NCBI GenBank assembly: GCA_016186905.1
Contig: JACPKS010000044.1
Span: 3,456 to 67,455 of the forward strand
Direction of reading: 5' to 3'
Source: Deltaproteobacteria bacterium
Lineage (GTDB): Bacteria > Bdellovibrionota > UBA1018 > UBA923
DNA: 64,000 bases
The notes beneath the pieces were generated by a model. That model did not search any database. It worked only from the letters and a program-made list of their open reading frames with translations, and was not told the origin of the DNA. This document shows, piece by piece, positions 33,252-43,442 of this stretch (position 1 is its first letter; every line of letters begins with the position of its first letter). A program made the position numbers and the translations under genes.

Positions 33252-35858
33252 TCACTCAACCCTGAGATACCGCGCGCAATCAGTCGTCTCCGGCTTCGCG
33301 CTCTCAAGATGACGCCGAGACGCTGATCGCAATTTCCCGCTCCGGGAACTCCGCGCGACCTGCGCGAGAACCGGCTCCAGTTCCCTGCTGCCGGTTTGCG
33401 CGATGCCGTCGACGATCATCATGCGGAACGCCAGTCGCTCCGCTTCCGAATGCTCCGGAAAATCCCGCTCGAGCATCTTCATCAAAATGCGTTGCAGGCT
33501 CGGGTCGCTCAGCGGCATTTGCGCGCCGGCCAGCAGATTCATGGCGACGACGCGGCAGAGACCCATCGGCCCCTCCTTTGCCAGCCGTTCAAGAATCGCC
33601 ACCCGAACATTCGGATCAAGCCTGGAAACCCATTGCAGAAGATCCGTGATCTCGTACGTCTTCCTGGCTTGGAGCAGCGCTTCCGTCAATGTCTCCGACA
33701 AAAGCGCATGACTATCCTTTGGCATGACCTGTATCAACTCGTCGATGACATAACTCCAGTGGTCGCCGTAGTCCGCCCTGAAGAGATTCATGATGATTTG
33801 CCGCCTCGTATCCGGCTGCAGATCAACGGATTCCGATTTAAGAAACATTTCGGCGATGCCGCTAGCCAGGCGGAAATCCGGTTTTTTCGCGCTCAAATCA
33901 AGAATAAGACGTTGAGCTTCCTCTCGCTCAAGGAGCATCGATTCTCCCTCAAGAACTGACTTCAAGATCCTGAGCGCGCTCATGCGCGTGTTGGCGTGCC
34001 CGGCGAGCTGTATGTTTTTGAGCATGGAGGGCGGAAGGTTTGCATTTTTCGAGTAGGCGGCGAAATCCTCTTCAAAACTGACGGCAAACGCGGCATGGAC
34101 CATTTGACGGACAAGCTCGTTCGGAACCATTTCGACTTGCCTGCCAAGAAGCCAGATATAAGCGGACAGAGCTTCAAGCTCAGTCAAAAAATGCAGCCGA
34201 TTGCGAAGGGGTTGCGCCGAATCCATGACGATCTCGCGAAGACGGGAGTGCAAATCCACAAATTGGTTCCTGCCCTTGTACCGAATGGCAGCCACATTGC
34301 GTACAAGCACGTGATGATGAACGATCACGTCAACCGCGTATTCCTGCGCTAGAAGATCGAAGACGTGCAATCCGGATTTTGAAGCCCGCCGCTGGAGCTT
34401 CGTGAAAACCGGGTGATCCTTGTCGCGATCCCAATCGACAATCCTGATATTCGGATCGTTGAGCGCCTCAAGGGTCAGGACGACGCCCTTTTTTCCGGCA
34501 TAACCCGAGGCCATATCGCGATGCGGAGAGGAATACGCGCCCGGACCATAAGCAGCGAGCCCCTGCCCGTCTTTGCTCATGAAGAGACCCTGTCTCATGA
34601 TTGCGAATGCGTTCTCGAGCCGCGGAGTGCCGTGGTAGAGTTTTCCCGCGTCGGTGCTTTTGGCGATGAATTGATCGATTGGAACGAGCAGATTTTTCGG
34701 GAGCGGCTTTCTTGGCGCCGAGGAAAGCGGACGATAGGCCACGAATTCGGGAATGAGCGCGGATTCCGTTCTTTGTTGCAGCTTTCCGACGAGGTCCATG
34801 AAAAGCCGGTCCAGTGAGCCTTCCCGAGCGCGGTAAAATCTGTTGTGAGCGCCCTGAAACCTGGCATTTCTGATCATTTTTCCGATCTGCTTCACTGCCT
34901 CAGCCGATACCTCTTTCCCCTGCTCGGCCTTTTTCAGCAGCATGACCAGCTCGCGCCTCAATATCGAGTCGTCCTTTAGTGTCATCCACGGAAGCTCAAG
35001 TCTCGGCCGCATTCCACGGATCGTCTGCTTCTCAGGATCGGATATCACTTGTACCGGCGCAGCGTAATCGTAAACGCCCCGCGCGAGATCCTTGGAAATG
35101 CCTGGAAACCGATCTGGATTCAGCAACTCGCCCTCATCGGTATCAAAAGCGAGCATGTCGATCGTGGAGCCTCCCTGGCGCGACGCGAGTCCGATCTGTT
35201 CGCCGTAGTCTTTGCAGTCGGCGATGTTGAAGAGAAATCTCTGCGCTCCGGAATCCGCCCTGAGTCCGATGGTTTTTTGCTCGACGCTATTCGTGACTCT
35301 TGAAAGTTCCTCTTTAAGCTCCCGGATTTTTCCCGACGGCGACTTGATCAGAACGTCAAAATCACTTCCGACACCGCGAACCTCGGTGGCATCGATATCC
35401 AGCGCATTGCCGATGATTTGCGCGATCGCTTCGTCCGCGGTTGCAGCGGTTCCGGTTTCCAGGCGCGCGGCGATCTCGTCGTAGACATAGCCGATCGCGG
35501 AGCGCACGACTCCACCGCTTGGCATCACCTTTACCTTCGGGTCAATCTTCCCGAGGATGTCCTTCGCAAAACTGAAATATCTGACCCGGACGGGCCGATC
35601 ACGGCCCTCAAGCATCACTGGAATCGTCAGCCGCTGAAACACCGAATACAGCGCTTGTTCTAATCTCTTGAGCGCGCGATTGGCCTCATGCTCCGGTATC
35701 TCATCCCATTTGAGGGCCCGGAATTCCTCTTTGATGAAGTAGTTCGGGAACTCCCTGGAGGCGTCGAAGAAATCCAGCGCAAACAAAGGCGCCGGAAACA
35801 CCACAAGCAACAACGCAGGCAACAGCAGATTTCGTAATCCGAGCGATAAGACCCTCAT
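33252..35858 (-). CDS. Giant secreted protein with a PARP-like (H-Y-E) ADP-ribosyltransferase catalytic signature
   Basis: Signal peptide. KLYHGTPRLENAFAIMRQGL / AYGPGAYSS / LLAQEYAVDV align with PARP1 LLWHGSRTTNFAGILSQGL / GYMFGKGIYFA / LLYNEYIVYD. The C-terminal third is alpha-helical repeat. Confidence 0.55.
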   Translation of the reverse strand: MRVLSLGLRNLLLPALLLVVFPAPLFALDFFDASREFPNYFIKEEFRALKWDEIPEHEANRALKRLEQALYSVFQRLTIPVMLEGRDRPVRVRYFSFAKDILGKIDPKVKVMPSGGVVRSAIGYVYDEIAARLETGTAATADEAIAQIIGNALDIDATEVRGVGSDFDVLIKSPSGKIRELKEELSRVTNSVEQKTIGLRADSGAQRFLFNIADCKDYGEQIGLASRQGGSTIDMLAFDTDEGELLNPDRFPGISKDLARGVYDYAAPVQVISDPEKQTIRGMRPRLELPWMTLKDDSILRRELVMLLKKAEQGKEVSAEAVKQIGKMIRNARFQGAHNRFYRAREGSLDRLFMDLVGKLQQRTESALIPEFVAYRPLSSAPRKPLPKNLLVPIDQFIAKSTDAGKLYHGTPRLENAFAIMRQGLFMSKDGQGLAAYGPGAYSSPHRDMASGYAGKKGVVLTLEALNDPNIRIVDWDRDKDHPVFTKLQRRASKSGLHVFDLLAQEYAVDVIVHHHVLVRNVAAIRYKGRNQFVDLHSRLREIVMDSAQPLRNRLHFLTELEALSAYIWLLGRQVEMVPNELVRQMVHAAFAVSFEEDFAAYSKNANLPPSMLKNIQLAGHANTRMSALRILKSVLEGESMLLEREEAQRLILDLSAKKPDFRLASGIAEMFLKSESVDLQPDTRRQIIMNLFRADYGDHWSYVIDELIQVMPKDSHALLSETLTEALLQARKTYEITDLLQWVSRLDPNVRVAILERLAKEGPMGLCRVVAMNLLAGAQMPLSDPSLQRILMKMLERDFPEHSEAERLAFRMMIVDGIAQTGSRELEPVLAQVARSSRSGKLRSASRRHLESAKPETTDCARYLRVE

Positions 35859-36020
35859 CTACTGCTTATCGTCTACGAAACCCAAGCTCTGAAGCACAGC
35901 AACTCAAAAAATATATAAACGCCTTAAGTAGTTTATTTTATTTATATTTTCTCATGTACTCCACAATCGCGATACTGCGGCGCGTTGAAATTAAGTAACA
36001 AAAAACACATGGAGCTTATT

Positions 36021-42132: not shown

Positions 42133-42287
42133 GCCTTCTGTATCGTCTTTGCCGGCGCCGATCAGGATGGGCAAAAGATGATCAGCAAGAGTTTCTTTGC
42201 GCGCAAACGGGCGTTGCCCGGTTGAACCAATTCAGGGGTTATCGCGACACCGCGCGACACCGGCGGTCACTCGTTCGGCTGGTAGCT

Positions 42288-43442
42288 TCAGTTCGGAAAA
42301 CTCTTAAGCAGCGCGGGCAGGCCCTCGAGCCCAGTGTAATATAAGTCCCTCATTCTCCTCGCGGTTTTCTTTCGCGCTCCATTTTCATCCGAGGCCACGA
42401 CAATGACCGGTGATTGCGGGTACATATCCCGGAACACCGAAACGGAATTTTCGGAGAATTGACGGGACTTCCATTTGCATTCGATGGCGATGGGCCGCGC
42501 TCCAGCCATGCCCTGAACGACAAAATCCACCTCATGCGCGGCCTTATCCCTCCAAAAATGTATTTTTTCCGGCGGTACGAGCGAAAGCATTTCATTCAAG
42601 ACGAAGTGCTCCCACAGAGGCCCGCAGTCGCTTTCAGTCAGACTCGTGCGGCCATGAAAATAATTGATGAACCCGGTATCGAAAAAATAGACTTTGGGAG
42701 CCGCGACGATTTCACGCGCGGGATTCGAGGAGAACGGACGCAGGATCACCGCGGCATGCGCGATTTCCAGAGCTCCGAGGTAATTCATGACTGTCTGGCG
42801 GGACAGCTCGCATGGAGCGGTCAGCGACTGGGCCTCGAAAAGCCCTCCGCTCTGCAACGCCAGCAGCTCCATGAGCTTCATGAAGCCGTACCTTTTTTCG
42901 ATCTTGAAGACTTCTTGGATGTCTTTGGCCCAAAAGCCATCGATCCAATCACGATAGGCCGCCTCATCGAAAGCGGGCGACAGCAGAAACGGCGGCAAAC
43001 CGCCCTTAAGCAGCCGCTCACGAAGGTTTCCATGCCCGAGCGCCGACAGGTCAGCGGCATTGCATGGCGTAAGTTTTACGACCCGCTTGCGGTCCGTGAG
43101 CGTGTCGCTGAACTTCGCGGTGGCAGCCAGGGTCGATGACCCAGTGGCGACGATTTTCAAGCGCGGGTAGTGATCCGCGGCGATTTTCAGCACTGCCGAC
43201 GGATTCGCGATCTTGTGGACCTCGTCGAGCACGATCAAGCGCCCATGACGGCTGTCAAAAAATTCCTCCGGATCGTCGAGAAGCCGTTGGATGCGCGGGA
43301 GCTCGCAATCAAAGTAGTCCACGTCTCCGAGCTGGCGGCAGAGGGTGGTCTTACCGGATCTGCGCACCCCCGTGAACCAAACGACGTTTTTTCTCAAAAG
43401 CGCCTGATTGATTCTTTCCAGCCAGAAATCTCTTTTAACCAC
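42288..43442 (-). CDS. AAA+ ATPase, COG1373/DUF4143 family (second copy, diverged)
   Basis: Walker A GVRRSGKTT, Walker B LIVLDEVHK and a DUF4143-like C-terminus. It lies 113 bp upstream of the giant paralog on the same strand. Confidence 0.7.
   Translation of the reverse strand: MVKRDFWLERINQALLRKNVVWFTGVRRSGKTTLCRQLGDVDYFDCELPRIQRLLDDPEEFFDSRHGRLIVLDEVHKIANPSAVLKIAADHYPRLKIVATGSSTLAATAKFSDTLTDRKRVVKLTPCNAADLSALGHGNLRERLLKGGLPPFLLSPAFDEAAYRDWIDGFWAKDIQEVFKIEKRYGFMKLMELLALQSGGLFEAQSLTAPCELSRQTVMNYLGALEIAHAAVILRPFSSNPAREIVAAPKVYFFDTGFINYFHGRTSLTESDCGPLWEHFVLNEMLSLVPPEKIHFWRDKAAHEVDFVVQGMAGARPIAIECKWKSRQFSENSVSVFRDMYPQSPVIVVASDENGARKKTARRMRDLYYTGLEGLPALLKSFPN

Follow-up and report, generated by a model that had tools for sequence, protein, structure and literature searches.

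Two giant genes in an accessory island

The stretch of DNA considered here, the window for short, comprises 64,000 nucleotides of contig JACPKS010000044.1, from the genome assembly of a deltaproteobacterium placed among the Bdellovibrionota (GCA_016186905.1). It carries two very large neighbouring genes, which we name giant 1 and giant 2, together with two genes for AAA+ ATPases of the COG1373/DUF4143 family, ATPase1 and ATPase2. An earlier reading, made from the sequence alone and without database searches, saw in the giants a pair of secreted paralogues, one of them endowed with an 'unmistakable' H-Y-E motif set of PARP-like ADP-ribosyltransferases (ARTs), and considered that each was functionally paired with the ATPase found nearby. 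Its map of the region holds: the open reading frame (ORF) calls place the genes where it had them, with a 113-bp gap between ATPase2 and giant 2, and with a membrane-protein ORF between ATPase1 and giant 1 (Table 1). The nature of the giants now appears in a different light. Both associate a nucleotidyltransferase (NTase) fold with an ART-like module, and we read them, with moderate confidence, as secreted effector enzymes lodged in a defence and toxin–antitoxin (TA) hotspot of a Bdellovibrionota-like chromosome, not as ART halves of ATPase–ART modules. The NTase domain, the ART-like module of giant 2 and the expansion of these proteins in a single lineage had no place in the sequence-only reading.

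A PARP-like module that lacks the catalytic glutamate

The module of giant 1 carries the H-G-T and G-x-G-x-Y motifs typical of PARP catalytic domains. In the giant 1 family H409, G410, T411 and Y442 vary little or not at all, and H396 and Y436 are invariant in that of giant 2. At a threshold of E ≤ 1 the Pfam PARP model (PF00644) is matched by 11 of the 32 members of the giant 1 family, the best of them (P0030) scoring 26.7 bits, which is the gathering score, and another (P0002) 20 bits; none of 36 members of the giant 2 family matches it. A profile restricted to the ART module (residues 385–530 of giant 1) returned 51 matches from the PDB at E ≤ 10, about 45 of which are PARP catalytic domains (PARP14, PARP16, PARP4, PARP15, PARP10 and the tankyrases, with E between 0.018 and 1). 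The alignment spans the region that goes from H-G-T through G-x-G-x-Y, the counterparts in PARP14 being H-G-T and G-K-G-T-Y. Each of these matches is marginal when taken singly; it is their consistency which is evidence for an ART-like module. At the level of sequence, a PARP-type, ART-like module in the giant 1 family is thus supported.

The third residue of the H-Y-E triad is another matter. E506 of giant 1, which the sequence-only reading took for the catalytic residue, is not conserved, and it lies inside a helical insert (residues 476–507). When the segment 'D-V-I-V-H-H-H-V-L-V-R-N…A-A-I-R-Y' is aligned by eye with what we take to be the corresponding motif of PARP1, 'L-L-Y-N-E-Y-I-V-Y-D…V-N-L-K-Y', the equivalent of E988 falls at residue 515, a position occupied in the family by T, H, Q, N, G, S or E. 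Of the motif set initially proposed, histidine and tyrosine therefore stand and glutamate does not. With the first two invariant and the third position variable, the module belongs to the H-Y-x variants. The human H-Y-x PARPs (PARP10, 14, 15 and 16) are active mono-ADP-ribosyltransferases, and a PARP-like module of this type would be, at most, a mono-ADP-ribosyltransferase.

The invariant D510 and N521 of giant 1 align with D464 and N477 of giant 2, also invariant, while the invariant E486 of the giant 2 family is located farther downstream than the PARP glutamate position. The giant 2 module has no match of its own in Pfam or in PDB sequences, the ART-only profile included, so that it is tied to ARTs only via giant 1. 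Fold searches returned no ART (with the giant 1 model, Foldseek found nothing in the PDB at E ≤ 0.001), because the whole-protein queries were dominated by other domains.

A nucleotidyltransferase fold and a variable C-terminus

Structure searches with AlphaFold2 models showed that the N-termini of both giants adopt a class-II nucleotidyltransferase fold, of the head-and-neck kind, the nearest solved folds being those of tRNA and RNA 3′-end enzymes. Both families keep, without variation, the GG…DxD…acidic signature, with its catalytic carboxylates intact. Neither giant matches the Pfam PolyA_pol model; the only match seen is that of two relatives to NTP_transf_2, at E ~ 0.1. The models are of good quality where it matters here. 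That of giant 1 has a pLDDT (a per-residue confidence score) of 79.6 overall and above 85 for residues 30–590, and that of the first 620 residues of giant 2 a mean pLDDT of 86.7. Residues of giant 2 are numbered, in the description of its domains, from M15, the ATG at 42132.

Beyond this core the proteins diverge. Conservation is confined to the first 500–560 residues in both families. The C-terminal part of giant 1 is modelled as a HEAT/TOG-like helical repeat, with a pLDDT of just 50–70, and the C-terminal parts of some relatives match HEAT, ankyrin or RasGEF models. A PDB sequence search with both giants gave no match, and the conserved core gave nothing above Pfam cut-offs. A full-length family profile, compared with the PDB, retrieves predominantly coiled-coil and solenoid noise, PARP16 appearing only at E = 0.6.

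How close are the giants to one another? The paralogy first suggested does not hold as a close one: BLASTP between the two is not significant (E = 0.05), and the whole-length profile–profile comparison of their families, collinear over 335 columns, gives E = 1.4e-3 and a probability of 18%. What remains of the common N-terminal domain is the class-II NTase fold, present in both and related at E = 2.6e-3 when the NTase regions of the two families are compared as profiles. The ART-like modules compare far better (hhalign probability 85–89%, E = 3–6e-6). As only these modules link the giants convincingly, we do not see the giants as close paralogues. To judge from these alignments, the two families are remotely related and share one common architecture.

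That architecture begins with a putative export signal, as had been predicted. Both giants start with a basic then hydrophobic N-terminus, similar to a signal peptide, and a hydrophobic stretch is found within the first 45 residues of 25 out of 32 relatives of giant 1 and 46 out of 51 relatives of giant 2. Conservation of these hydrophobic N-termini supports export.

A large family of uncultured Bdellovibrionota

Homologues of giant 1 fall into 32 clusters, all annotated 'hypothetical'; for giant 2, a word-indexed search retrieved at least 454. Among 1.8 billion representative proteins, the ART module of giant 1 is found in 545 representative clusters at E ≤ 1e-3, of which 254 reach E ≤ 1e-10. 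The module typically lies near residue 400 of proteins 800–2000 amino acids long, and this constant position, together with the number of matches, points to a stable architecture and a large family. It is also seen elsewhere: at residues 2250–2383 of a 2949-residue protein (P0174), near the N-terminus of a protein of 1394 residues (P0153, residues 54–203, in two stretches) and in shorter proteins, down to 163 residues (P0181), perhaps domains standing alone or pieces of genes.

All named sources are uncultured Bdellovibrionota bins or related unclassified bins (Bdellovibrionia, Bacteriovoracaceae, Pseudobdellovibrionaceae, Oligoflexia, and 'Deltaproteobacteria' or 'Proteobacteria' bins). In a collection with one genome per species, considering the best 80 of 105 matches, single metagenome-assembled genomes carry 19, 18 and 11 loci of the giant 2 type. 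Tandem arrays comprise up to four copies, with four giant 2 type genes in each of two loci (L013 and L015). In a further locus (L094, 5961–17009) a giant 1 type gene coding for 1204 residues is placed between two head-to-tail giant ORFs of 1347 and 1129 residues.

The names given to relatives are either 'hypothetical' or evidently spurious. Precomputed Pfam labels are attached to some giant 2 relatives (P0040, P0043, P0132, P0143, P0147, P0042, P0081 and P0088): RasGEF (PF00617), FGE-sulfatase (PF03781) and ankyrin (PF00023). These eukaryote-like labels hint at eukaryotic or unusual targets. Literature searches combining Bdellovibrio or Bdellovibrionota with ADP-ribosyltransferase and nucleotidyltransferase returned nothing relevant; we found no description of the exported NTase plus ART-like architecture, while secreted ART-type effectors are, as a kind, already known.

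The ATPases and their neighbourhood

Both ATPases do belong to the AAA+ COG1373/DUF4143 family, and they have diverged (26% identity), as had been noted. They lie far above Pfam cut-offs, for AAA_14 (E = 1.6e-33 for ATPase1, 2.9e-31 for ATPase2) as well as for DUF4143 (4.1e-21 and 2e-20), and match over their full length the PADLOC model PDC-S01 (1e-135 and 3.1e-58). The translated sequence of ATPase1 shows Walker A and Walker B motifs as well as D…E-x-K. PDC-S01 is a single-gene defence candidate, identified by 'guilt-by-embedding', where an ATPase is fused to a PD-(D/E)xK domain; one survey ranks it fourth among the most common defence systems across prokaryotes, with validation pending (PMC12988326). 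The novel role that had been imagined for the ATPases gives way to this common candidate.

ATPase1 is placed directly downstream of giant 2, which has, as a consequence, an ATPase on both sides, each adjacent to it. We asked how general this is with 97 loci around giant family members, scanned with a hidden Markov model of the ATPases; ten of the loci were contributed by a metagenome scan with a narrower alignment. The resulting crude gene map holds 990 genes, 120 giants and 10 ATPases. DUF4143 ATPases occur near giants in about ten distinct places. Counted over 95 loci, such an ATPase is the immediate neighbour of about 6 of the ~120 giants (~5%); elsewhere the four remaining ATPases stand 0.6–7 kb away, or the locus has none (Table 1). 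The model found no ATPase at six loci of the giant 1 family located on long contigs (L078, L079, L083, L094, L096 and L097). Among the non-giant immediate neighbours of giants 6 out of ~152 are ATPases, versus 4 of the 713 other flanking genes. In a Fisher test of adjacency that includes the window, the odds ratio is 7.3 (p = 0.003); excluding it, the odds ratio falls to 3.6–6.4 and p rises to 0.02–0.11, according to the treatment of borderline cases. The ATPases of six loci (L020, L049, L080, L081, L074 and L091) make one subfamily, 37–54% identical, in different Bdellovibrionota bins, with which those of the window and of L005 are 22–26% identical. At best, the association between ATPase and giant is a weak tendency, seen for some 5% of the giants and with no fixed side or orientation. 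This neighbourhood survey does not bear out the functional pairing of the sequence-only reading.

A mosaic island

The genes that surround the giants are listed in Table 1. The block is supported as a low-GC, mosaic accessory island with TA modules. Its GC content is 0.48–0.54 across 33–39 kb, against ~0.60 outside, the MazF-type flank (PemK) that had been noted is borne out by the toxin match, and the mosaic character is supported by the GC dip and a repeat of abiEii. Two copies of the 3′-end of this gene, 210 nt in length, direct and 90% identical, are found at 31938–32147 and 38160–38369. They bracket a segment of 6.2 kb with the HTH gene, giant 1, the membrane ORF and ATPase1, so that the second copy, a remnant, is located between ATPase1 and giant 2. 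Such a pattern suggests that an AbiE locus underwent insertion or recombination. Of the AbiE pair that had been proposed, AbiEii is clear (Table 1), but the helix–turn–helix (HTH) protein encoded upstream matches generic HTH models and none of the AbiEi models of Pfam or PADLOC. Past ATPase2 one meets first a lipoprotein-like ORF and next the housekeeping genes for ScpA, ScpB and a RluB-like pseudouridine synthase (44567–47320), hence our view of the setting as chromosomal. The lipoprotein-like ORF (43546–44346, minus strand, 266 residues, N-terminus with …LMAVTASGC…), between ATPase2 and scpA, has no Pfam match.

ATPase1 is preceded by a promoter-like site of its own, a match to 11 of 12 consensus positions and a consensus match only, which speaks against the co-regulation with a giant that had been envisaged. 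Between the stop codon of giant 1 and the HTH gene (33135–33251) there is a very AT-rich joint with overlapping palindromes (ATTGACTAAATAATTAATTATATAATAAAT), where a promoter-like site with 10 of 12 consensus positions is also present.

The 206-residue ORF on the plus strand, with about five separate hydrophobic segments, has no Pfam or PADLOC match. Its homologue is absent from all 97 related loci, and we rejected it as an immunity or partner gene because it is missing at every other locus. We also discarded a possible synteny, hinted at by similar sizes, between an ORF pair of 207 and 601 residues in the window and a pair of 206 and 602 residues beside a relative (L097): there is no homology.

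Elsewhere, too, giant 1 type genes have TA genes in their vicinity: AbiEii in L078 (530–1741), and HipA/HTH (HipAB) with Gp49/HTH_37 in L097 (13248–17036). This is compatible with the giants residing in TA and defence hotspots. The abiEii repeat, the GC dip and these TA genes would fit a hotspot built by recombination, for cargo as well as for defence or selfish genes.

Table 1. Features of the window and DUF4143 ATPases found around other giants (coordinates refer to the locus named in the first column)
Locus	Feature	Coordinates	Strand	Size or residues	Remarks
Window	MazF/PemK toxin	31316-31681	-	121 aa	Pfam PemK E=1.6e-19
Window	ORF, possible antitoxin	31633-31929	-	98 aa	No family match; precedes MazF, directly downstream of abiEii
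Window	AbiEii	31930-32700	-	256 aa	Pfam 41.8 bits, cut-off 22.5
Window	HTH protein	32655-33134	-	159 aa	Generic HTH models (Pfam)
Window	Giant 1	33252-35858	-	868 aa	ORF call and translation
Window	Giant 1, variable alpha-solenoid C-terminus	33255-34268	-		
Window	Giant 1, PARP-like ART module	34269-34706	-	aa 385-530	H409-G-T, G-x-G-x-Y442, invariant D510, N521
Window	Giant 1, NTase-like domain	34734-35696	-	~aa 55-375	Invariant G115-G116-x-x-R119, S165-D166-x-D168, D214
Window	ORF with hydrophobic transmembrane-like segments	35985-36605	+	206 aa	Between ATPase1 and giant 1
Window	ATPase1	36591-37967	-	458 aa	AAA_14 and DUF4143, PADLOC PDC-S01
Window	Promoter-like site upstream of ATPase1	38017-38045	-		11/12 consensus positions; consensus match only
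Window	Truncated abiEii remnant	38160-38369	-	210 nt	Direct repeat, 90% identical to the 3′ end of intact abiEii
Window	Giant 2	38443-42174	-	1243 aa from TTG; 1229 aa from ATG at 42132	ORF call; signal peptide, class-II NTase-like domain, diverged ART-like module, long and putatively helical C-terminus
Window	Giant 2, ART-like module	40657-41019	-	aa 372-492 from M15	Invariant H396, Y436, D464, N477, E486
Window	Giant 2, NTase-like domain	41038-41985	-	aa 50-365 from M15	Invariant G91-G92, D132-x-D134, E166, R168
Window	ATPase2	42288-43442	-	384 aa	AAA_14 and DUF4143 (Pfam), PADLOC PDC-S01
L049	ATPase	5235-6407			193 bp upstream of a giant 2 type gene, same strand
L005	ATPase				571 bp upstream of a giant 2 type gene, same strand
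L080	ATPase	13203-14366			86 bp downstream of a giant 1 type gene, same strand
L091	ATPase, fragment	13622-14056			103 bp downstream of a giant 1 type gene, same strand
L032	ATPase, weak match				200 bp from a giant 2 type gene, divergent
L074	ATPase	1-441			1.4 kb from a giant 2 type gene
L081	ATPase	17836-19005			4.9 kb from a giant 1 type gene
L020	ATPase	14305-15468			7 kb from a giant 2 type gene

What the giants may do

Putting these observations together, we think it probable that the giants are secreted effector enzymes. The island would have gathered independent selfish or defence genes, MazEF, AbiE with its abiEii remnant, and two ATPase–nuclease genes of the PDC-S01 type, around two cargo genes, the giants themselves. 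These would be exported through a Sec-type signal peptide, their conserved two-enzyme N-terminal core modifying, with NTP and NAD+, a target that the variable helical-repeat C-terminal region would select. The DUF4143 ATPases would act alone, as candidates for a nucleic acid-directed defence, and would adjoin giants since both types of genes build up in the same variable hotspots. That they are stand-alone genes is argued by their match to PDC-S01, by the promoter-like site that belongs to ATPase1, and by the fact that about 95% of the giants lack such a neighbour.

Several observations weigh against this reading. Giant 1 itself has no significant Pfam ART match (the best is ART-PolyVal, E = 0.2), so that the PARP similarity announced by the sequence-only reading is carried by the family, not by the protein of the window. 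The catalytic glutamate being absent, its module could be inactive. As for the ATPases, their adjacency to giants is somewhat above expectation, and one and the same subfamily recurs beside both types of giants, so that at a few loci the two genes may truly be linked in function. Yet extending this link to each giant and the DUF4143 ATPase that adjoins it, the latter acting as chaperone, regulator or co-effector, appears to us very unlikely. Two adjacencies with diverged ATPases in the window, same-strand adjacency at four other loci (L049, L005, L080 and, as a fragment, L091), the excess of ATPases among immediate neighbours and the subfamily shared by both giant types do speak for such a two-gene module. 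Against it, the overwhelming majority of the family does without an ATPase neighbour, most long-contig loci included; the side is inconstant, the ATPase preceding the giant in the window, L049 and L005 and following it in L080 and L091; the enrichment loses much of its strength once the window where it was discovered is set aside; the ATPases belong to a single-gene defence candidate widespread across prokaryotes, and ATPase1 seems to have a promoter of its own; finally, one does not see what a cytoplasmic ATPase–nuclease would do for a protein exported by the Sec route. Enrichment of this kind would also be expected from a shared tendency of the two gene types to collect in variable hotspots, and, on present evidence, the pairing seen in the window is mostly a by-product of the structure of the island.

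The nature of the target is a further point, and it may be protein or RNA: protein mono-ARTs are the top PDB matches of the ART module, yet the kin of the NTase domain are RNA 3′-end enzymes. A more specific form of the effector reading would make the giants RNA-targeting toxins, in which the PARP-like module would ADP-ribosylate RNA and the NTase would bind its 3′ ends or extend them. The folds closest to the N-terminal domain go in this direction, as does the weak reach of the ART-only profile to the RNA 2′-phosphotransferase Tpt1 (E ~ 1.2), and secreted or defence ARTs that act on 23S rRNA, tRNA or mRNA are documented (PMC8661411, PMC13617354, PMC11618068). We find it unlikely all the same, as there is no conserved adjacent immunity gene (the membrane ORF is missing at other loci), HEAT, ankyrin and RasGEF C-termini indicate protein targets, and the PARPs matched are enzymes that modify proteins. 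Nor do we give much credit to a catalytically dead ART-like module, which would turn the giants into exported proteins that bind, serve as scaffolds or sit at the surface, or leave the NTase as their sole activity. One may invoke here the variable position aligned by eye with E988 of PARP1, the module of the giant 2 type, with no detectable similarity to any Pfam or PDB ART, and fold searches that gave no ART. But the histidine and tyrosine motifs that contact NAD+, as well as D510 and N521, are invariant over hundreds of diverged sequences, a sign of selection acting on a site of ligand binding or catalysis. Moreover, the top PDB matches are the H-Y-x PARPs 10, 14, 15 and 16, which are themselves active.

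A bolder version of the effector reading, to which we would grant only a small chance, has a new class of bifunctional secreted effectors, specific to uncultured Bdellovibrionota, which would combine the NTase with a PARP-like ART devoid of the glutamate to act on the RNA or protein of a prey or host, with dozens of paralogues per genome diversified in their helical C-termini, and with a subfamily of PDC-S01 linked to a subset of them. What would be at stake, should the core be active, is an as yet undescribed architecture for an exported enzyme using NAD+ and NTP, a large, untapped repertoire of effectors, numbering some 20 or more per genome in the uncultured kin of predatory bacteria, and possibly a clue to the way in which these lineages attack their prey or host. 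The locus also makes a concrete test case for asking whether the PDC-S01 ATPase–nucleases, very common and unvalidated, have preferred genomic partners.

Comparison with known systems

Among known families, the PARP-type ARTs (PARPs 10, 14, 15 and 16; PF00644) come closest to the module of giant 1, with H-G-[ST] on the first strand and G-x-G-x-Y-[ST/F] in common, and with the catalytic glutamate missing as it is in the H-Y-I, H-Y-L and H-Y-Y mono-ARTs. The sequence alignment covers the N-terminal half only, and the region of the PARP acceptor loop is replaced in the giant 1 family by the helical insert mentioned above. Unlike PARPs, the giants keep an invariant aspartate and asparagine (D510 and N521), and in them a signal peptide, an NTase and helical repeats accompany the module on one polypeptide. 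The NTase itself differs from the bacterial CCA-adding enzymes and from poly(A) polymerase I by a long insert between the GG and DxD motifs, by the want of a recognisable tRNA-binding body or tail, and by its association with an export signal and a fused ART-like module. As for the ATPases, both match PDC-S01 over their full length, possess the ATPase and PD-(D/E)xK motifs and sit among TA and Abi genes, with no distinctive difference from that family.

Finally, secreted bacterial ART toxins and effectors offer a parallel. The Rhs-linked Tre toxins act on EF-Tu, 23S rRNA or tRNA, and CmdT is a defence ART that modifies mRNA (PMC9825190, PMC8661411, PMC13617354, PMC11618068). Like secreted ART toxins, the giants combine a predicted NAD+-using enzyme with a large exported multidomain protein, in families that diversify. 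They apparently use a Sec signal, unlike the ARTs delivered by Rhs proteins or by the type VI secretion system, and, unlike ART toxins, they have an extra NTase domain and no conserved adjacent immunity gene. The layout of polymorphic toxins is here reversed: it is the C-terminal helical repeats of the giants that vary, while their enzymatic core is conserved.

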